From IMG/VR virus record IMGVR_UViG_3300031977_002889: a DNA stretch of 64,000 nucleotides; one strand, given 5' to 3'. How positions within the stretch are numbered: position 1 is the first letter of the stretch; each line of letters starts with the position of its first letter. This document shows positions 5,237 through 61,639 of this stretch, piece after piece. Under the pieces are notes generated by a model. That model did no database searches and was not told where the DNA came from. It saw nothing but the letters and a program-made list of their open reading frames with translations. A program made the position numbers and the translations under genes. This DNA comes from a virus.

Positions 5237-5807
5237 CTACAATATTCCAATAACTTAACCAACCAGTGGTTATATATTTATGTTCATTCGGAGCAGTAAT
5301 ACCTCTATGAGTATGTGTCCAATCTGCTGGCCAAATAACTGTTAATCCTCTTTCAGGTTTGATTTTTAGATTTTGATATAGCCATGATGTTTCTCCACCA
5401 TTTTCTACATCATTAAGATATGTCATAAAAGCTAAGAGTCTTGTATTTGCTATTCCTACTCCAGCTCTTTCAGAATGCCACGCGTGATATCCTTGTTTAG
5501 GAGCATAGTGTTGAATATTAATATATTCTTGTATACCAAATTGATTTTGTTCTTTTAAAACTTCAAATTCATTTACATATTCAGTTACTAATGGATTTAG
5601 TATTTCGTAATAATATTCTTCACCTAACTCTTGTGGCATTTCAACATCTGTACTATCTTTCCATTCTTTATTAACAGAACCTCCAGCTCTACCTTCAAAA
5701 GTATTATCACTAGTATTAATAAAATCAATACATTTATCTAATATTTCATGATCTAAATAATAACCTCGTATAAACGGATTTTGAGTATTTATTAAATGTT
5801 TTTTCAT
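5214..5807 (-). CDS. 2OG-Fe(II) oxygenase (prolyl-4-hydroxylase-like)
   Basis: WHSE...YLNDV..GGET...WTHTHRG...KYITTGW. Confidence 0.88.
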   Translation of the reverse strand: MKKHLINTQNPFIRGYYLDHEILDKCIDFINTSDNTFEGRAGGSVNKEWKDSTDVEMPQELGEEYYYEILNPLVTEYVNEFEVLKEQNQFGIQEYINIQHYAPKQGYHAWHSERAGVGIANTRLLAFMTYLNDVENGGETSWLYQNLKIKPERGLTVIWPADWTHTHRGITAPNEHKYITTGWLSYWNIVDEDSSIK

Positions 5808-6394
5808 TACATAAAATCACTTAAATCCGAGTCTGCCGATTTTGTTTGACGTTTAATCTTTTTCTTCTCTTCTTTGACAAAGTCTTTAACTTCTGCATCA
5901 GCCGCTCGAACTTTATCGATACGGTCACGCAACGTATCCACAAATGCTCCAGCCACATGCGCTGCTATATCCTCACCACCAACATCAATAAAATTCTCAA
6001 CCCCTGAACGAGTAAGATATTTAATTTTGATGTCTTGTTGTTTCTTTTCTTTTGCGATTCTTCGTAAAAAGGCATACCATGAGATTTGCGTAAAATAAGC
6101 AAAAGCATTTGGTTTACCTGTACGTGTGGCAGCTTCAATATCATAGTTATTGATAGCTTTCAAACAATTTTCTACAGCATCCATTACCATTTCTTCACGA
6201 TAAGTATAACGAATAAAATTTGATTTGTGAGACAAACCTTCAGCGATTCTTAGAAAACACTGAGCAATATAATCTGGTACAAGTGGAATTTTGTCTTGTT
6301 TCTTTTTAGCTTCATTAACTACTGTTACATAGTCTACCACAGCCTGAGAAAAATCAGCATTATTTACATAGTGTATGCTTTTTCTTTTTGCCAT
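5807..6394 (-). CDS. gp55: Late-transcription sigma factor
   Basis: HYVNN..F, NF..YTYREEMVMDAVENCL, NAFAYFTQI..YAFLRRI.KEKKQ. Confidence 0.95.
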   Translation of the reverse strand: MAKRKSIHYVNNADFSQAVVDYVTVVNEAKKKQDKIPLVPDYIAQCFLRIAEGLSHKSNFIRYTYREEMVMDAVENCLKAINNYDIEAATRTGKPNAFAYFTQISWYAFLRRIAKEKKQQDIKIKYLTRSGVENFIDVGGEDIAAHVAGAFVDTLRDRIDKVRAADAEVKDFVKEEKKKIKRQTKSADSDLSDFM

Positions 6395-6417: not shown

Positions 6418-6446
6418 ATTCTATCAAAAAAATAAAGAAATGTACA
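6418..6446 (-). promoter_or_regulatory. Early promoter for gp55
   Basis: TGTACA-N17-TAGAAT; the same architecture recurs at 47452, 48866 and 55596. Confidence 0.7.
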
Positions 6447-6482
6447 TATAATTTTTTTAGTTTAAGAGGAAAAAATAGGGGG

Positions 6483-6549
6483 TTTACAAGTGATAAAAAC
6501 TATGGTAGAATTAACTGTAGTTAGGAGGGAGGAGAGGATACCCTTCTAA
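6483..6549 (+). ncRNA. Antisense-oriented promoter plus purine-loop hairpin, copy 1 (putative small RNA)
   Basis: TTTACA-N17-TAGAAT, then TAACTGTAG and hairpin TTAGGAGGG/CCCTTCTAA with loop AGGAGAGGATA; second copy at 55660-55723. Confidence 0.55.
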
Positions 6550-7007
6550 TGGAGCGTCGTTTTACCAGTTGGAAATTTAATCACATTATTATCAGAATCT
6601 GGACTATTCATACTGTCTAAAAAATTATCGAAATCTTCATCTGTAATATCATCCATATCCATACCCATTTTTTCAGCGAGTTGATCGAATGAAAAATCTT
6701 GTCTATTTTTTTCGTGTTTCATACCTAATACACTTCGTGCATAGTGCGATAGCATACTGGCACTTGGATTTGATTCAGCAATTACTTGATTTGAATTTAA
6801 AATATGTAATTCACTTGGATCATCAACAAAAGAAAACCATGGACGAAAAGCATAAAATCTTACACCTCGTTGAAAATCTTCGACCACCATAATTTTCATA
6901 CAAGATCTTACAACAAGACCAGCATCTCCTGATTCTGCAGAAACTACTTCACAAATTACTTCGTCATCATTGGTCATTTTAAATTGTTTGATTGTTGGTT
7001 CGTTCAT
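6546..7007 (-). CDS. Hypothetical protein downstream of uvsW
   Basis: 153 aa ORF coupled to uvsW; N-terminal FKMTNDDEVICEV, C-terminal NVIKFP...TLH. Confidence 0.75.
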   Translation of the reverse strand: MNEPTIKQFKMTNDDEVICEVVSAESGDAGLVVRSCMKIMVVEDFQRGVRFYAFRPWFSFVDDPSELHILNSNQVIAESNPSASMLSHYARSVLGMKHEKNRQDFSFDQLAEKMGMDMDDITDEDFDNFLDSMNSPDSDNNVIKFPTGKTTLH

Positions 7008-8482
7008 AAATCCACCGTATGAGTTTTATATTTAAATTTTTCTTTTTGGTAAATCTTAAGACGTTCTTCACCATGTGAATAAGCAAAATTCTTACCTGTA
7101 ATATTATCTATAATATCATACAATTTAGTTATTGATCCGTCTTCGCTTTGTCTGAGTCCTCTACCGATAGATTGTAAAACACGTATCTGGGATTTTGACG
7201 GACTAGCAAATACGATATTATGCAAATTCCGAATATTAATACCAGTACTAAAGGTACCAAGACTTGCAACAATAATAGCGCCATGTTGTTTCTCCACTAT
7301 TTTACGAATTGCTTCTCTATCTTCGGTGTGTGTCTGTCCAGATACAAAAAATATTTTTCTGTCTTCAGCTGCTTTATCTTTAATTAAATTGAAGAGTGGT
7401 TTTCCATGATTTTCCACAAGGTTGTATAAGACGAGAGTATTGCCCACAGAAGCCAAAGCCAAGTTACGAATAAAACGATTACGTAAATCATGCTTGACAA
7501 TCCAATCGATTTCTTCTTGATAAGTCCTTTTACCAAAATCAGAAGTGTCTTTATATTTGATTTCCAACCTGTCAATGTTGAGGTCTGCGAGGGTTTTTTC
7601 GTCTTGGAGGTTTCTTGTGGTAGTGACGCGGTGTATCTTACCAAAAAGTCCCTGAAGGACGAGCTCGTGGGTTTGTGTTCCATCTAATGTTCCTGTTGTA
7701 CCATATCTGAATCCAGCTTCTGTGGCTTTATTCATAATATTCATCAATGATTTAGATTTAAAACCATGACATTCATCACCAATTACCATTCCAAATTGAT
7801 CGAACCATGCTTTTGGCAATTTATAAATTGATTGCCATGTAGATATACAAATCGCAGCATCAAATTTTTTGTCCTTACCACTATATATACGATGTACACC
7901 TTTAGGTCCCTGACCATACTCAATAAGATCATTATGCATTTGCTCAACTAAAGAAGTAGTAGGTACAATAATTAAAACTCTTCCAGCTTTTGGATATGCC
8001 ACTCCATCAGATAACATCTGCAACCAAAACTTAGCGAGTAAATATATAATTAATGATTTACCAGAACCAGTTGGTGATACAAGTATATTTCTTTTATGAT
8101 GTAAGGCATGACATAAAGCATCGAATTGATAATCTCGTATTTTAAATGGTAGACCTAAACCTTCAATCCATTCCATAATAAGCTTAGGATTAATATGTAC
8201 TGTATCGATAGGACCACCGTATCGGGTGGTTTCGGTACCAAGCATATATGCTCGCTGTTTACAAAATTCTTGTAAGTGAAAAAATAAACCAGCAGGCAAT
8301 TCTCCGCTATTAGAATCAAATAGACGAATCTTACCATCCCACATTCTATTTTTAAATGCTGGCATAAATTTATAACCAGGCACATAGAATGAGAAATATT
8401 CTCTCAATTCAGCTGCTATACCACTATTACATTCTACATGTAAATTAGCGTGAGTTAATTTCCTGACTCGAATTGTTTCCAT
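7004..8482 (-). CDS. uvsW: UvsW SF2 DNA/RNA helicase
   Basis: SPTGSGKS, DECH, TGT, STGINI and QSIGRGLR motifs; N-terminal WDGKIRLF. Confidence 0.95.
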   Translation of the reverse strand: METIRVRKLTHANLHVECNSGIAAELREYFSFYVPGYKFMPAFKNRMWDGKIRLFDSNSGELPAGLFFHLQEFCKQRAYMLGTETTRYGGPIDTVHINPKLIMEWIEGLGLPFKIRDYQFDALCHALHHKRNILVSPTGSGKSLIIYLLAKFWLQMLSDGVAYPKAGRVLIIVPTTSLVEQMHNDLIEYGQGPKGVHRIYSGKDKKFDAAICISTWQSIYKLPKAWFDQFGMVIGDECHGFKSKSLMNIMNKATEAGFRYGTTGTLDGTQTHELVLQGLFGKIHRVTTTRNLQDEKTLADLNIDRLEIKYKDTSDFGKRTYQEEIDWIVKHDLRNRFIRNLALASVGNTLVLYNLVENHGKPLFNLIKDKAAEDRKIFFVSGQTHTEDREAIRKIVEKQHGAIIVASLGTFSTGINIRNLHNIVFASPSKSQIRVLQSIGRGLRQSEDGSITKLYDIIDNITGKNFAYSHGEERLKIYQKEKFKYKTHTVDL

Positions 8483-8898
8483 TTAATCATATTACTTATA
8501 GTCTGATGACGCCAATTGAGATTATTTATGATCTCCTGCAATGTCTCAACCATTGTCTTATAGTATTGAATTTTCTCTTCTGATTTTTGTATTTCAGGAT
8601 CTGCATCATAATAGTATTCCATTTCACCCTTTAAGATTTTCATACCATCAAAAGGATCTAATGCCCATCCAGTTTCTTTTATTTCTTCTTCTGTCATCTT
8701 ACCATTATAATATAACCACTTTTGTTTTAGCAAAGTTTTTTGTTTAAACTCTGCACGCTTTAACATTAGTTTTGCTGTGGAAAGATATTCGAGATATTTA
8801 CCATGAAGTATTGGTGTATCTCTTGAGGTTTCATCTAAATGATATTCATCAATAGCATTTTCACTTCGCCATTCAGCGAGAATTTTTTCTAAATCCAT
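8455..8898 (-). CDS. uvsY: UvsY recombination mediator
   Basis: P.LHGKYL, KWLYYNGK and I.N.IKW.QF motifs; sits between gp3 and uvsW. Confidence 0.88.
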   Translation of the reverse strand: MDLEKILAEWRSENAIDEYHLDETSRDTPILHGKYLEYLSTAKLMLKRAEFKQKTLLKQKWLYYNGKMTEEEIKETGWALDPFDGMKILKGEMEYYYDADPEIQKSEEKIQYYKTMVETLQEIINNLNWRHQTISNMIKWKQFESGN

Positions 8899-8906
8899 AA
8901 TATACC

Positions 8907-9407
8907 TTATAATAATTCAAAATAACTAAATCTAAATGATGCTCCAAAAGTAACGAATTCAGTACCACTTGCAGTAGATTGGAATTGCACATCTGTTAAT
9001 GCAACTGGCATACAATCTATATATCTGATTTGTTTTGTCACGTTATTATGACTTGATAATATTGATAATACAATATCTGATACTGTTGGTGGTCTTATTC
9101 CCGCATCTTCTAATCTTGAATTTTCATTATTATCAAGATTAGTTCTCATCCAATTATACATTTCATTGTACGCATCCATATTTTCATCTACAATAATATT
9201 TGCAAGTAATTCATTAAACGTAAGTTTATCACCTACAAATGGAATTGATTGTAGTTTTCGAAACGGTACTTCAACTGCATTCATTATCATACCAGGATGA
9301 GTAAAATCCTGACAGAAAAACTCCAAATTTGGGAAGTTTTTTCTATCAATCGTTATCTTAAACGACGTGGGCTGTAAGTAGTTAATATTTGATGTTAGTT
9401 CTGCCAT
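8907..9407 (-). CDS. gp3: Tail completion / tube terminator protein
   Basis: NYLQPTSFK, EFFCQ...PG, GDKL.F..L...IIVDENM..Y.E...W; follows gp23. Confidence 0.85.
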   Translation of the reverse strand: MAELTSNINYLQPTSFKITIDRKNFPNLEFFCQDFTHPGMIMNAVEVPFRKLQSIPFVGDKLTFNELLANIIVDENMDAYNEMYNWMRTNLDNNENSRLEDAGIRPPTVSDIVLSILSSHNNVTKQIRYIDCMPVALTDVQFQSTASGTEFVTFGASFRFSYFELL

Positions 9408-45498: not shown

Positions 45499-46138
45499 CC
45501 AGTTTGAAGAATACGCAGACTATATAGAAAATAAGCAAAGAAATTATGCACTAAAGTATGGAGCAACATATGCTCTTCATACGCCTGATGATATAGACAA
45601 TTATGATGACTTACAATTAAATAAAATATTGTTAGCAGAAAAATATGCTCAACAGTTTGATCAAGTATTATATATTGATTATGACGTCATTCCAACTGAT
45701 TATGCGCCTGACATTTTTAGAAAAGTAAATGGTCTAAGCTTATATCCAACATTTCCAAAAGTTGGTATGAAAGAATATGATAAGCTTTTAAATAAACAAA
45801 TGATGTTAGCGTCTGAAGGTCGTAAATATAATAATATCATTTACAACACAGGTGTTTTCCATTGTGATAAAGCATCAATGGAAGAATTAAAGTTTAGTGA
45901 AAGATTCGATGAATGTAAAGAGCTATGTTCAGACTTTAATAACGAAGTTTACATCAGTTATATCATAGAACGATATGGTTGTAAACACAATTTTTTACCA
46001 ATGTGTTGGAATTATATCTTAGATGGATTTCAAGAAATGCCAAACGCTGCAGGATATTTTCATCACTATCATCATAAAAAATTTTGGTGCCTCCTCCCGG
46101 ACTCGAACCGGGACGCTATTACTAGCGAGAGATTTTAA
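45458..46138 (+). CDS. GT-A fold glycosyltransferase-like protein (paralog of upstream gene); 3' end overlaps tRNA-Leu antisense
   Basis: DQVLYIDYDV, NTGVF, NNEV, WNY. Confidence 0.7.
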   Translation: MSKIIFTQYLPLNNQFEEYADYIENKQRNYALKYGATYALHTPDDIDNYDDLQLNKILLAEKYAQQFDQVLYIDYDVIPTDYAPDIFRKVNGLSLYPTFPKVGMKEYDKLLNKQMMLASEGRKYNNIIYNTGVFHCDKASMEELKFSERFDECKELCSDFNNEVYISYIIERYGCKHNFLPMCWNYILDGFQEMPNAAGYFHHYHHKKFWCLLPDSNRDAITSERF

Positions 46139-46170
46139 GTCTCTTGTGTCTACCATTCCACCAAGGAGGC
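46085..46170 (-). tRNA. trnL: tRNA-Leu(UAA)
   Basis: GCCTCCT/AGGAGGC acceptor, anticodon arm AGAGA-CTTAAAA-TCTCT, long variable arm, GGTTCGAGTCC, encoded CCA. Confidence 0.95.
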
Positions 46171-46172
46171 AT

Positions 46173-46248
46173 TGGAGCGGGCAATCAGGTTCGAACTGAC
46201 GACATTCAGATTGGAAATCTGACGCTCTACCAACTGAGCTATACCCGC
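46173..46248 (-). tRNA. trnG: tRNA-Gly(UCC)
   Basis: GCGGGTA/TGCCCGC acceptor, TCAGA-TTTCCAA-TCTGA, TTCGAAC T-loop, TCCA end. Confidence 0.95.
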
Positions 46249-46254
46249 ATAATT

Positions 46255-46440
46255 TGGCCCGCCCTAGAATCACCGCTATGCAGATCATCTTTGATTTCAT
46301 CCTGCACCGACGGGCAATGCAGGCATAGACTGTTACTCCACACATAGATTACCAACAGTCTAATCTCATCTATGTGACCTCAACATTTAGAGGATTTTCT
46401 GGGCGGGAGTGGAGGGTTCGAACCTTCTTAAACGCTCCCG
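46255..46440 (-). ncRNA. Unannotated structured RNA ending in CCA within the tRNA array
   Basis: Closing helix CCCGCCC/GGGCGGG-CCA, 9+9 bp pseudoknot, 9 bp hairpin with G-U pairs, upstream T-loop minihelix. Confidence 0.7.
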
Positions 46441-46446
46441 TTATAT

Positions 46447-46523
46447 TGGTCTCGGTAGCTGGATTCGAACCAACGACCTCTAGTACCCAAAACTAGCGCA
46501 CTACCAGGCTGTGCTATACCGAG
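46447..46523 (-). tRNA. trnP: tRNA-Pro(UGG)
   Basis: CTCGGTA/TACCGAG acceptor, CTAGT-TTTGGGT-ACTAG, GGTTCGAATCC, ACCA end. Confidence 0.95.
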
Positions 46524-46631
46524 TTAACCTTGTCCTCTATATTTTTTAAAACTACGTTTTGTGGATTTATTCATTGACGAAAACTTTACATTTCGTTTTC
46601 CGATAGAAGTTTTCTTATTACCTTTAGCCAT
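46524..46631 (-). CDS. Unannotated 35 aa highly basic peptide
   Basis: GAGG RBS; MAKGNKKTSIGKRNVKFSSMNKSTKRSFKKYRGQG; stop codon abuts tRNA-Pro +1. Confidence 0.7.
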   Translation of the reverse strand: MAKGNKKTSIGKRNVKFSSMNKSTKRSFKKYRGQG

Positions 46632-46649
46632 AATTTTCCTCACTTTAAT

Positions 46650-46726
46650 TGGCGATTGCGGAAGGACTCGAACCCTCAACCTACAGATTAGAAGTCTGTT
46701 GCTCTATCCAGTTGAGCTACGCAACC
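46650..46726 (-). tRNA. trnR: tRNA-Arg(UCU)
   Basis: GGTTGCG/CGCAATC acceptor, ACAGA-CTTCTAA-TCTGT, GGTTCGAGTCC, GCCA end. Confidence 0.95.
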
Positions 46727-53210: not shown

Positions 53211-53776
53211 ACTTTAATCTCATATTGATTATTATAAAAATTATTTAAATCAACTTTATATTCTTCTACAAATCGATCAACCCCTTTAACAACGCCTTTT
53301 TTATTTCCGTAATCATCACCAAAAATAATACCACCGCCATGAGAAGTAAGATGTTTATATGTGTTTACAAGGTCTTCATAAACCCCGTCTTCATCATGTG
53401 CAGCATCAACATAAAACCAATCAACCTTTTCATCAAACATACGAAAAAAACGTTTTGTATCCATTCTCCAAATTTGAACGTTTAATTTTTGTTGAAATCT
53501 TTGACAAACACTTTCATATATTTGATCGTAATAATTCATAAATTCTTTTGGTGTATTTCCACCAGTAATACCAGAATAACGTTTTAAATAATCTTCATAT
53601 GATTCTAAATGTTTATAAGGTTCAACACTCCACGAATCAACTAAATGAAGCTTTCGAGTTTTTTGAGACATTAGCTCAGAGCTATCACCTTTCCATACAC
53701 CAAGTTCTACTCCTACAGAATAATTTGGCATCCGTTTAATTGTTTCATGAATATTTCTATTCGTACCTATCATCAT
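53207..53776 (-). CDS. Class I SAM-dependent methyltransferase
   Basis: VELGVWKG.S, VDSW, D..YVDAAH, GG.I.GDDY. Confidence 0.82.
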   Translation of the reverse strand: MMIGTNRNIHETIKRMPNYSVGVELGVWKGDSSELMSQKTRKLHLVDSWSVEPYKHLESYEDYLKRYSGITGGNTPKEFMNYYDQIYESVCQRFQQKLNVQIWRMDTKRFFRMFDEKVDWFYVDAAHDEDGVYEDLVNTYKHLTSHGGGIIFGDDYGNKKGVVKGVDRFVEEYKVDLNNFYNNQYEIKV

Positions 53777-54564
53777 TGGACAAGTTCCATCAATCTTTCC
53801 ACATCTTCACCTCTTTTTGGTAATTTATCTTTCAAAAAGAAATGGACGAAATGTGCTTGTTTAATACTATTCATATCTATACCAGTGAAAAGACCATTCC
53901 ATTTCCAATCAAGATCTTTGATTCTCATTCTTTCTTCTTTAATCCATACATTTAATAATGTCTGATCTGTAGACCATTTCCATGCACCCATGCCATCAAC
54001 GAATGGTTTAAATTGTGGACGTCTTAAAAATTGATGAGGTGTTTCTCCATTTAAATATTTAGAGAATCGTTTATTCAAAACCATCATTCCCATATTATAA
54101 AAATCTGCACCAGCTTTATGTTTAAAATCAAAAAGCTTATTGATTGGACTCATACCATATTGCATACGACTATAGTTCGCAATCTTACGATCGTATTGTG
54201 GAGTAATAGGCATTTGTCTTTCCATAACAAATCCAGCATCATACTCATCAGTTAAGTCTTCAAAAATATTTGGTGCATCTGGACGAATCCAAATATCTGC
54301 ATCAATAATTGCGATCTGATCATATTTTGGGAAATAAGTAAAAGCATTTTCTTTTTCAAAGATTGGTAGATAACCACCATGCTTTTCATATGATTCTTTA
54401 CTGCGATTTGTAGAGAATACATCTGGTTTAATTCTTAAAATAGGATGACGTTGGACCTCATGATCGATACCGTATTTTTTACAATATTCTGTCACTGATT
54501 GTGTACAATGATCGTAAAGACGTGAACGAGATCCAACGTATACTTGATAAATCAACCGTTTCAT
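53773..54564 (-). CDS. GT-A (GT8-like) glycosyltransferase
   Basis: IIDADI, N.GMMV, DQTLLN, WN, FVHF. Confidence 0.78.
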   Translation of the reverse strand: MKRLIYQVYVGSRSRLYDHCTQSVTEYCKKYGIDHEVQRHPILRIKPDVFSTNRSKESYEKHGGYLPIFEKENAFTYFPKYDQIAIIDADIWIRPDAPNIFEDLTDEYDAGFVMERQMPITPQYDRKIANYSRMQYGMSPINKLFDFKHKAGADFYNMGMMVLNKRFSKYLNGETPHQFLRRPQFKPFVDGMGAWKWSTDQTLLNVWIKEERMRIKDLDWKWNGLFTGIDMNSIKQAHFVHFFLKDKLPKRGEDVERLMELVQ

Positions 54565-54884: not shown

Positions 54885-55074
54885 AATAGTACTCCTTAAT
54901 GATGGTAGCAATTTCTTTAGCTTCACCATAACCATTACGAAGACGATTTGATTTGTGGCCATTTTTTAAGAACCACATAATACTATCTATATCAGATTCC
55001 CGCGATGGTAGCGAGAACCGATCTACTAGCATTTCGTATTTATACCTTAAAGCGAGAACTTCGAATAAAGTCAA
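54850..55074 (-). CDS. Hypothetical protein (TTG start)
   Basis: GGAGG RBS before TTG at 55074; C-terminal part of listed ORF 54850..55191. Confidence 0.55.
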   Translation of the reverse strand: MTLFEVLALRYKYEMLVDRFSLPSRESDIDSIMWFLKNGHKSNRLRNGYGEAKEIATIIKEYYYGGQRGHRKKS

Positions 55075-55570
55075 GTGCTTCCTCCATTTTAGGGAATAGA
55101 TAATCTTCAAGATCGTCTTCATTAGCTTGATATCGAATACCGATACCACCAGCTTGATTCCAACGAGCGATGTTTGTAGGTTTATCGTCAATCAAAATAT
55201 TAGGACTACCATCATAAGTATTTGTGGCATAACGTTCTTTTTGACCTGTAAAAATACAATTACGAACTTCGGGCATCCAAAGATGAGATTCTAACCAACG
55301 ACGTTTCCAATAAGAAGAGTTTGCAAAATCTCCACGTAAAGGAGAAGAACAGATTCCGTATCCTAAACTGCCAACTTCATCATGAACTTTTTCGATAAGT
55401 TTACCAGCAGTAACAAAAGGCAAAAGATCATAGAAAAAGCTTGTATTACGAAGATTCGTAATTGATTCTTCTATATCTAATTCTTTCCAATGCTGAACAT
55501 TGTAATAATCTTCAAGACCGCCAAAGAAATCGGCGATCACTCCATCCATATCTAAGTAGATAATGCTCAT
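55040..55570 (-). CDS. HAD-family 5'(3')-deoxyribonucleotidase (NT5C-like)
   Basis: YLDMDGVIADF, SSP, K..W, LIDD...NI..W...GG.GI. Confidence 0.85.
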   Translation of the reverse strand: MSIIYLDMDGVIADFFGGLEDYYNVQHWKELDIEESITNLRNTSFFYDLLPFVTAGKLIEKVHDEVGSLGYGICSSPLRGDFANSSYWKRRWLESHLWMPEVRNCIFTGQKERYATNTYDGSPNILIDDKPTNIARWNQAGGIGIRYQANEDDLEDYLFPKMEEALDFIRSSRFKV

Positions 55571-55595: not shown

Positions 55596-55624
55596 ATTCT
55601 ACCATATATTGGAGGCAATGTACA
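55596..55624 (-). promoter_or_regulatory. Early promoter heading the nucleotidase/glycosyltransferase operon
   Basis: TGTACA-N17-TAGAAT with TG extension. Confidence 0.72.
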
Positions 55625-55659: not shown

Positions 55660-55723
55660 TTTACAAAATACCCAAATGTGGTATAATTAACTGTAGTTAG
55701 GGGAGAGGAGAGGTAACCTCTAA
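55660..55723 (+). ncRNA. Antisense-oriented promoter plus purine-loop hairpin, copy 2
   Basis: TTTACA-N16-TATAAT, identical AATTAACTGTAGTTAGG core, hairpin TTAGGGG/CCTCTAA with loop AGAGGAGAGGTAA. Confidence 0.55.
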
Positions 55724-56164
55724 AATAATTTGTATAATTTCCCGACCCGTTTTTGATTTTTTAATTTTTTGTCTAACTTTTTTATCTTTAGTATAGTCTC
55801 TTACGAATAGAAGAGCGTCCAATTTTATTTTAAATAAGTCTGGTTGCTCAATGTCATCATTAAACATTTTTGCAAAAAAATTCAAAAATGGATTTTCTGT
55901 TTTTTTCTCGTATCCTTCTGCTTCAGCAAATCTTTTTGCAATCGATTTATTTCGAATAGTCGCGGTTTCTAATCTTTCGGTTGTATTTAAATGTATATCT
56001 GTTAATGAAACATATTCTAAAAGTTTATTAAATTTTCTAGTCCCTACTAATATATTTTCAACACGAGTACCGTCTTCGCTATTAATATAAACTGATACTT
56101 GTGTTTTTGTATCATTCGTAAAATACGCATTTATAATTATTTCGTGTTCATCAATCATTACCAT
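55697..56164 (-). CDS. Hypothetical protein, short paralog of 62860..63921
   Basis: C-terminal LFKIKLD.L......KK...KIKKSK...II..IL matches LFKSKLE.L......K....KVRKAK....LI..VL. Confidence 0.65.
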   Translation of the reverse strand: MVMIDEHEIIINAYFTNDTKTQVSVYINSEDGTRVENILVGTRKFNKLLEYVSLTDIHLNTTERLETATIRNKSIAKRFAEAEGYEKKTENPFLNFFAKMFNDDIEQPDLFKIKLDALLFVRDYTKDKKVRQKIKKSKTGREIIQIILEVTSPLP

Positions 56165-60426: not shown

Positions 60427-61639
60427 ATTTATAATCCTTTAGATAAGGAGCCAATTCATATATATCTTCATTATTTTCTCTTGCAACTAAGCAAAAGTCA
60501 ATCCATTGAACCATTCTTCTTTGAATGGTGCCTCGTCCAGATAGATCTGGTTTTACACTTAAAATATTATTTACACCACTTACAACCAGTCTATCGCTTA
60601 AATATAAAGTATCATTTGCTTTTTTATAGCTTTTTAAATAGTTAAAAAAGTTATCAAGACCTTCTTTAATATGATGTTCATGTAAATATAATGGAGAACA
60701 ATATTTTGGAAATGTAACTAAATTAGCCATACTAATTCTATCAACGCCATCAACATCTTTCCAAAAATCAATCAATTCAGGTAAATGCATCCAATTATAA
60801 ATTGATATTGTAGATACGATTACAACCTTTCTTCCTTCAACAGCATGATAGCGATTAATATTATTTAAAGTTCTTTTAAAATTGCCACCACGAATCCAAT
60901 TATATAACTCGTGCACACCGTCGATGCTTGCTTGAATATGTACTTCTTTTAATCTGTGTAGTAATTGAATAACAGTATTTGTTACCAGTTGAAAATTTGT
61001 ACAAATTTCTACTCTACATGTGGGGTTTGTATTTGCGAGTTTTTCTAGTATTTTAATATTATTTGGATCAGCAAATGGTTCACCACCTTTAATTGTAAGA
61101 TGCTGTAAACCTGGAACGATTTTTAGTATCTTATCTACATCAACATCAGTCATTTTATACATTTCTGTATGAAATTTATGATTCTCATCTCTCCAATGTA
61201 ATCCAGATTCAACTGCCATTTTTTCATATGGAGCCCATTTATGTGAATATTTACCTGAACAAGTTACACACATTTGATTACAAATATTGCTCGTGGTAAT
61301 TTCTAAAAATCGAATGGGTCGTGAATCTTTTTCAATGTCTTCTTCATATGTTGGAAACTCAAATCTATTATAAGAATCAAATCTTGCAATTCTTCCAGCT
61401 TTATGGTGTATTACACATACATCGCACTGTGGTGGATAGTTATTATTTTTAAAATTATGACGAATCTCATCGTATACATTAGAATTGAAAAATTCTTCAA
61501 CGTCATCGATATCTTTAATATGTGATACTGCTACATTGTCTCCAGCACAACATAATACAATTTCTCCTAATGGATTAATTGTTAAACCAGTTTCTGGAAC
61601 TAAACATTTCATCGAGCAATTACCATATGACGATTCCAT
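60419..61639 (-). CDS. Radical SAM protein with N-terminal SPASM/twitch-like Cys cluster (probable start MKCLVP)
   Basis: C..P...G...LCC...C..C; SNICNQMCVTC; GGEPF; TN; SIDG. Confidence 0.87.
   Translation of the reverse strand: MESSYGNCSMKCLVPETGLTINPLGEIVLCCAGDNVAVSHIKDIDDVEEFFNSNVYDEIRHNFKNNNYPPQCDVCVIHHKAGRIARFDSYNRFEFPTYEEDIEKDSRPIRFLEITTSNICNQMCVTCSGKYSHKWAPYEKMAVESGLHWRDENHKFHTEMYKMTDVDVDKILKIVPGLQHLTIKGGEPFADPNNIKILEKLANTNPTCRVEICTNFQLVTNTVIQLLHRLKEVHIQASIDGVHELYNWIRGGNFKRTLNNINRYHAVEGRKVVIVSTISIYNWMHLPELIDFWKDVDGVDRISMANLVTFPKYCSPLYLHEHHIKEGLDNFFNYLKSYKKANDTLYLSDRLVVSGVNNILSVKPDLSGRGTIQRRMVQWIDFCLVARENNEDIYELAPYLKDYKFD

Follow-up and report, generated by a model that had tools for sequence, protein, structure and literature searches.

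A conserved two-way early-promoter block beside the gp55 gene of marine T4-like phages: probably an antisense or boundary control element rather than a structured small RNA

The repeated element beside the gp55 gene, first described as an antisense promoter driving a hairpin, reads as a two-way early-promoter block of about 150 nt and not merely as a promoter followed by a hairpin. Its backward promoter appears to be a real and conserved regulatory feature, a variation on two known kinds, the early promoter cassette and the antisense promoter. In our view, it probably serves antisense or boundary control and does not encode a structured small RNA. Among the functions suggested by the initial annotation, the evidence leaves standing the one of a putative antisense insulator against read-through.

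The window, i.e. the whole stretch of 64 kb that was analysed, originates from a marine T4-like phage with a GC content of 34%, and nearly all of its genes are on the minus strand. Its nearest GenBank relative is Phage C48C1 (Kyanoviridae), with 72% DNA identity in the gp55 gene. Each copy of the element lies between the stop codon of one minus-strand gene and the promoter, Shine-Dalgarno (SD) sequence and ATG of the next. The gene map is therefore in agreement with the earlier observations that both copies sit at an operon boundary, back to back with an early promoter, and that uvsW lies about 0.5 kb from copy 1. The genes surrounding the two copies are the following.

5807-6394, minus strand: gp55 late sigma factor gene (phrog_234, E 1.3e-49), downstream of copy 1
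6546-7007, minus strand: 153-aa gene of the phrog_471 family, whose 3' end would be covered by the antisense RNA
7004-8482, minus strand: uvsW, next upstream of the 153-aa gene
8455-8898, minus strand: uvsY, upstream of uvsW
55040-55570, minus strand: 5'-deoxyribonucleotidase-like gene, bordering copy 2
55697-56164, minus strand: 155-aa gene, the other border of copy 2

The 153-aa and 155-aa upstream proteins were considered as paralogues that could explain the repeat; their translations, compared by eye, show no obvious similarity. The two copies comprise the following parts.

6418-6446, minus strand: sense early promoter of gp55, copy 1 (TGTACA-N17-TAGAAT with an A-tract upstream), near-consensus in all relatives
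6447-6482, no strand assigned: AT-rich spacer between the back-to-back -35 boxes of copy 1, with the UP-like A-tracts of both promoters
6483-6511, plus strand: antisense promoter of copy 1 (TTTACA at 6483-6488, N17 ending in TGg, TAGAAT at 6506-6511)
6512-6523, plus strand: inverted repeat TAACT-gt-AGTTA of copy 1, straddling the likely start site, at the centre of the 17-nt core
6524-6542, plus strand: purine-only G-rich block GGAGGGAGGAGAGGA of copy 1, then TACC, corresponding to the family motif of G block and TATACC
6519-6548, plus strand: hairpin of the initial annotation (TTAGGAGGG / CCCTTCTAA), lineage-specific and not significant
55596-55624, minus strand: sense early promoter of the nucleotidase-like gene, copy 2 (TGTACA-N17-TAGAAT)
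55660-55687, plus strand: antisense promoter of copy 2 (TTTACA at 55660-55665, N16 ending in TGg, TATAAT at 55682-55687)
55688-55717, plus strand: start region of copy 2, with the TAACTgtAGTTA repeat, the G block GGGGAGAGGAGAGG and TAACC

The whole intergenic block of about 150 nt, from the SD to the upstream stop, can be aligned between copies 1 and 2, and the repeat is therefore best described as a two-way promoter cassette. At both sites, the sense arm is composed of an A-tract, TGTACA-N17-TAGAAT, an SD and an ATG, and the sense and backward promoters are 36 bp apart. The backward arms exhibit what is expected of strong early promoters, namely near-consensus -35 and -10 hexamers separated by 16-17 nt, together with a TGg before the -10 in both copies and an A/T-rich, UP-like GAAAAAATA upstream of the -35. 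The boxes and the spacer of copy 1 were found as initially reported, with no plus-strand gene behind the promoter in either copy. The shared 17-mer AATTAACTGTAGTTAGG was likewise recovered without a mismatch at 6509-6525 and 55685-55701. It is followed by a purine run of the GGAGGGAGGAGAGG type, GGAGGGAGGAGAGGA in copy 1 and GGGGAGAGGAGAGG in copy 2. The start region of copy 2 extends over the stop (55697-55699) and the final codons of the 155-aa gene. A profile made from relatives alone detects, in the 64 kb, exactly these two copies at full length (E 2.4e-8 and 3.6e-6); its remaining matches in the window are restricted to the promoter part and lie on the sense strand.

In order to sample relatives without bias, 80 loci were fetched through the gp55 protein, of which 77 had enough upstream sequence. 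A near-consensus backward promoter lies beside the gp55 promoter in 72 of these 77 loci: its score is at least 11 of 12 in 68 of them, and four more score 10.5 and exhibit the G block. The backward promoter is also found beside gp55 in five Kyanoviridae of GenBank (C48C1, S-RIM50, S-CAM8, HTVC008M and Mosig), in the form TTGAC(A/G)-N17-TA(T/G)AAT, with start regions that differ. The distance between the two promoters ranges from an overlap in S-CAM8 to 5 bp in C48C1 and 36 bp in the window. In the cyanophage and SAR11-phage versions, the promoter is kept and the G block is absent. S-CAM8 (L265, around 1940-1975) and S-RIM50 (L262) have the -35 of each divergent promoter inside the spacer of the other, so that simultaneous occupancy of both promoters is not possible in these phages. 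These two phages, although they belong to different genera, also have a near-identical antisense start region, AACCATGTC(A/G)(G)GGTTCA.

The exact 15-mer core is not rare: it occurs in 49 viral contigs, mostly as chance matches inside genes. The promoter context accompanies it at ten loci only, of the gp55 type and the copy-2 type, which are the relatives. A loose pattern scan of viral contigs returned mostly noise, with no new members among the matches listed. The literature searched contains no description of the backward gp55 promoter; the Syn9 transcriptome (Doron 2016) lies outside this search, and an earlier description is possible.

The two copies differ in age. Copy 2 is seen in only two contigs, with a 95%-identical nucleotidase, and the more distant sites orthologous to it exhibit the sense promoter alone. 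Because it is restricted to 95%-identical relatives, copy 2 is a recent duplication of the cassette in front of the nucleotidase gene. The gp55 copy, in turn, is old. Most relatives have one copy per genome. The block stays beside gp55 in loci of the L172 type despite the insertion of a 210-aa gene upstream. This gene (L172, 715-1347), which ends in ...WSVGHTDEWQYKTLDES, separates the small gene on the uvsW side from the gp55 cassette, and its insertion junction falls at the cassette edge; L174, L177, L179, L184, L186, L195, L233 and L238 are similar loci with the 210-aa insertion.

Downstream of the backward promoter, the family has a constant layout. The -10 is directly followed by an A/T-rich stretch of 13-15 nt and then by a block of 10-12 nt, almost purine-only and mostly G, at +15 to +25 after the -10; in 60 of the 65 sequences, the last base of (G/A)TATAC(C/T) lies 29-33 nt beyond the -10. 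On the other side, the gp55 ATG follows the sense -10 at a variable distance (14 to 44 nt). The conserved parts are thus the promoter, the G-rich block at fixed spacing and TATAC(C), and the conserved element keeps its register with the backward promoter.

This layout of promoter, short leader, SD and spacer reads as that of an early gene start without a gene; the start of the nucleotidase gene of the window is GGAGAATACATG. A sequence-only covariance model built from the family was searched against four large contigs of relatives and C48C1. Its best match is the gp55 copy in each of the four contigs and in C48C1, and it also matches, over its full length, ordinary gene starts in relatives. 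In L274 and L267, the G block is the SD, and TATACT or TAGTAT is the spacer before the ATG of an ORF of 121 aa or 188 aa, respectively. A second, nearly full-scoring copy (47 bits) is present in L272 (1501-1583; IMGVR_UViG_3300025684_000015, 53739-53821) at a strand switch, with a small ORF, preceded by an SD of its own, about 45 nt further on. As read from this locus, the G block and TACC can also belong to a sense leader. In L273 (1501-1565; IMGVR_UViG_3300017911_001939, 61231-61295), a promoter with G block and GTATACC (36 bits) lies antisense inside an uninterrupted 281-aa ORF, which suggests either an embedded antisense promoter or two genes read as one.

The predicted duplex with the 16S 3' tail, for which a generic sequence from general knowledge was used as a yardstick for duplex energies only, reaches -16.2 kcal/mol for copy 1 and -13.8 kcal/mol for copy 2, with a family mean of -11.7 kcal/mol. 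The same predicted pairing for 55 gene leaders of the window has a mean of -5.3 kcal/mol, and the G blocks of the two copies pair more strongly in this prediction than any real ribosome site in the window. The earlier description of the purine block as Shine-Dalgarno-like is thereby supported. SD-like sequences located near the 5' end of an RNA and not used for initiation are known as STAB-SD, as in cryIIIA of Bacillus thuringiensis. The element resembles them in that a very strong SD-like block is located some 10-20 nt behind the predicted 5' end and no start codon is conserved. In contrast, STAB-SD has been described for Gram-positive mRNAs, and the likeness here is one of sequence. A small plus-strand protein starting at an ATG/GTG over the upstream stop was considered and rejected, as the corresponding ORF comprises 1-97 codons or is missing, and is not conserved. 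An ATG/GTG start is absent in about 16 of the 65 sequences and in copy 2; the ATG/GTG often found after the block is the antisense of the conserved C-terminal His codon of the upstream protein.

Inverted repeats are common between the -10 and the G block (L170-L249; 6512-6523 and 55688-55699 in the window). Their sequences are lineage-specific, for example AAACTATAGTTT, AAAGCATGCTTT, CATAGA-tgct-TCTATG and AAGGC-tgt-GCCTT, with TAACT-gt-AGTTA in the window. The best arm has a mean length of 3.92 nt, versus 3.03 +/- 0.10 nt in shuffles, and arms of at least 5 nt are present in 23 of the 65 sequences. As the left arm comes directly after the -10, upstream of the likely start, the repeat does not correspond to a 5' hairpin in the plus-strand transcript. 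A protein-binding site or operator, a single-strand structure, or a signal acting on the other strand are possible roles. The inverted repeat accounts for the identical 17-nt core.

Based on these observations, we tentatively propose, with somewhat less than an even chance of being right, that the backward arm acts as an antisense or boundary promoter without a coding role, directed into the final part of the upstream operon. A host sigma70-type polymerase would fire the backward arm early in infection and produce a short non-coding RNA, antisense to the 3' end of the upstream operon, which for copy 1 would be the operon of the 153-aa gene, uvsW and uvsY. This antisense RNA would be C-rich further downstream, and would therefore probably be ended by Rho. 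Convergent transcription or RNA pairing could then screen the downstream early gene from read-through, damp the upstream operon, or both. The ribosome-binding-like block may stabilise the antisense RNA or help the polymerase to win head-on collisions.

Several findings point to this antisense or boundary function. The near-consensus backward promoter is kept in nearly all gp55 loci and in the five GenBank phages, and the spacing is constrained relative to it, with a variable distance on the sense side. The block remains with gp55 despite the change of upstream gene, and it was transferred as a whole to the site of copy 2. Its parts are arranged as in a gene start, and the same model matches true gene starts in relatives, with no conserved plus-strand ORF, plus-strand terminator, structure or Rfam family found for the backward arm. 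The upstream unit begins with an intrinsic terminator and TATAAATA. Finally, as in interference elements, the promoter faces a converging unit of minus-strand genes and has no coding role.

Other points argue against a boundary function. A pure insulator would need neither a conserved G block, nor TATAC, nor an identical 17-nt core; promoter escape, ribosome binding or an operator would account for these only in a loose way. The phage owns a normal intrinsic terminator, which would allow a simpler boundary. The promoter spacing varies by lineage, and no single geometric mechanism fits all. In addition, sequence exchange among similar early-promoter blocks could maintain some of the features without selection.

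A broader version of the antisense or boundary reading, which we regard as unlikely, is that marine T4-like phages (Kyanoviridae and allies) have a dedicated early antisense unit governing expression around the late sigma gene, in which the G-rich leader would have a function of its own (30S loading or a template hybrid) and the whole would be a portable timing or boundary module. If this is true, such a module would do with a promoter what a terminator does, and could be copied to further operon borders. A promoter-based boundary would likewise offer a mobile alternative to terminators for separating operons. The T4-like phages that infect marine cyanobacteria and bacteria of the SAR11 type count among the most abundant marine viruses, and their gene timing is poorly understood; to our knowledge, they are without the MotA/AsiA middle-transcription system of T4. 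A backward host-type promoter located beside the late sigma gene in nearly every relative provides a concrete and testable control point.

Among described systems, the nearest are the PeSL (promoter-early stem-loop) cassettes of T4-type coliphages and vibriophages, which are repeated promoter and terminator blocks mediating gene shuffling in RB49/phi1, T4/PST and KVP40/nt-1 (PMC2839356, PMC4122927). Like PeSLs, the element is a short repeated block that spans the upstream stop to the next ATG, comprises a sigma70-type early promoter and an SD, and occurs in several genomic places at junctions where the gene content differs between relatives. These junctions are seen in the different upstream gene of the L172-type loci and in the distant orthologous sites where copy 2 is missing. 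However, PeSLs pair the promoter with a stem-loop terminator, whereas the element has no significant or conserved stem-loop and no T run; in place of the stem-loop it has a backward promoter together with a leader, and it is present in two copies only in the 64 kb. Both arms resemble the early "UP/-35/TGn/-10" promoters of T4 (PMC2988021) by their A-tract, -35, TG-extended -10 and 16-17-nt spacer. They differ from them by the -35, which is T(T/G)TACA, and by the backward arm heading no gene. As in coliphage 186 pR/pL, the T4 gene 32 antisense transcript and S-PM2 CfrI (PMC2984593), a strong promoter faces the end of a converging unit, and the predicted RNA is complementary to this unit. Unlike in these systems, the antisense promoter, here predicted from sequence, is back to back with the promoter of the next gene, is conserved family-wide and has a ribosome-site-like leader.

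We also considered an R-loop replication origin, in which the purine-rich RNA would stay on the C-rich template and prime the leading strand before being removed later by UvsW. The strong promoter without a gene, the G cluster, composed almost entirely of purines, in roughly the first 20 nt and the location beside uvsW/uvsY are consistent with such an origin. G-rich purine RNA near the start of a transcript favours RNA-DNA hybrids. There is also the precedent of T4 oriF (uvsY) and oriG (34), where a promoter and a downstream A+T-rich unwinding element form an R-loop (PMC3016281); the element shares with them a promoter near uvsW/uvsY whose predicted transcript has no coding role. In contrast to oriF and oriG, the element has no A+T-rich unwinding element, the GC content being 42% at +1 to +50 and 34% at +51 to +150 for a locus mean of 34%, and its promoter is an ordinary sigma70 promoter without MotA dependence. 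Signals of replication, skew included, were not found: the cumulative GC skew runs straight through both sites without a turn. Furthermore, the G block is absent in the cyanophage and SAR11-phage versions, the same G block and TATAC serve as SD and spacer of real genes, and a fork starting here would meet more than 50 kb of minus-strand genes head-on. The origin initially suggested is thus disfavoured, and we consider it quite unlikely.

The backward arm could also serve the sense promoter itself, the RNA being irrelevant. Divergent firing would generate negative supercoiling and activate the gp55 promoter on incoming DNA, or the two promoters would compete, as the overlapping boxes of cyanophages would. 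The backward arm always travels with the sense promoter and not with the upstream gene, and the sequence between the promoters is very AT-rich, with a family mean GC content of 21% across the 45 nt upstream of the plus-strand -35. The purine-rich start region resembles those of strong phage promoters such as T5 N25. Nevertheless, the distance between the promoters goes from an overlap to 36 bp, activation and competition cannot both be the shared role, and the window has other early promoters that function without a partner, which makes this coupling distinctly improbable.

Alternatively, the function could reside on the minus strand, where the C/U-rich block after the upstream stop would be a Rho loading site or an anti-SD mask in read-through mRNA. 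With such a mask, which resembles some T4 translational masks, only transcripts from the gene's own promoter would be translated. In most loci, the block does follow the upstream stop codon at 0-15 nt, and it reads CCUCUCCUCCCUCC on the minus strand, which is complementary to GGAG-type ribosome sites. However, its spacing is fixed to the plus-strand -10 and not to the downstream SD or ATG, and the most conserved feature, the near-consensus plus-strand promoter, is left unexplained. We therefore give this possibility a similarly low probability.

With regard to RNA structure, the hairpin with a G-rich loop that had been described in both copies is only partly retained: both copies fold, with little beyond what shuffled sequences do. 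The hairpin of copy 1, whose 3' arm shares bases with the TAG stop codon (6546-6548) at the end of the 153-aa gene, has 10 pairs including one G-U and an energy of -12.7 kcal/mol; compared with dinucleotide shuffles, its z is -0.97, and 36 of 200 shuffles fold at least equally well. Copy 2 folds into a 5-bp AGAGG/CCUCU stem within a weak outer stem (-7.8 kcal/mol, z -0.40, not beyond shuffled sequence), with part of "AGGAGAGG" in the stem rather than in the loop. Conservation of the stem pairing in relatives, proposed at the outset as a test, is not observed: in an alignment of 67 relatives, 54.0% of the stem positions pair versus 52.4% in shuffles, and the stem partner slid by one column pairs equally well. 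RNAalifold gives no consensus structure for 65 sequences, and an alternative family-wide stem, GTATA/TATAC around the G block, was rejected with 55.5% paired versus 53.6% in shuffles. The family-wide MFE z is weak on both strands (mean -0.44 on plus, -0.33 on minus), and no terminator-like site or T run is found on the plus strand downstream of either copy. At the gathering threshold, Rfam detects tRNAs only in the window, with no family for the backward-arm element; Methylobacterium-1 was rejected as an identity, being below threshold (18.8 bits versus 40, E 0.7). The element should consequently not be modelled as a structured RNA family. A trans-acting small RNA that presents GGA/AGGAG in a hairpin loop as a CsrA/RsmA sponge or ribosome decoy, to which the identical 5' region of both copies and the strong 16S pairing of the G block would lend themselves, is very improbable, since the hairpin is neither significant nor conserved, a single purine block replaces the array of GGA loops, no intrinsic terminator defines a small RNA, in contrast to CsrB/RsmZ, no Rfam family matches, and most relatives have one copy per genome.

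The Rfam matches in the window correspond to four clustered tRNA genes at 46088-46726 on the minus strand (RF00005, 57-70 bits). At 9460-9413, also on the minus strand, an intrinsic terminator GAGGCGC-ttcg-GCGCCTC with a T run is directly followed by TATAAATA and then by the ATG of an ORF at 8907-9407; this junction of terminator and late promoter appears to head the uvsY-uvsW unit. All 11 occurrences of TATAAATA in the whole window are on the minus strand, five of them no more than 80 nt upstream of an ORF start; the canonical T4 late promoter box thus appears to be in use in this phage. As it is led by TATAAATA, found on the minus strand only, the unit comprising the 153-aa gene, uvsW and uvsY is probably late; uvsW is late in T4 (PMC3016281).

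The phrog_471-family protein encoded at 6546-7007 on the minus strand is annotated as "methylamine utilization". In the window and in its homologues (e.g. L172, 251-718), this small protein exhibits a conserved tail, N-V-I-K/Q-F-x-P...H-stop, which may be a docking motif. The C-terminal His of the small protein located between uvsW and gp55 is also kept in HTVC008M and Mosig.
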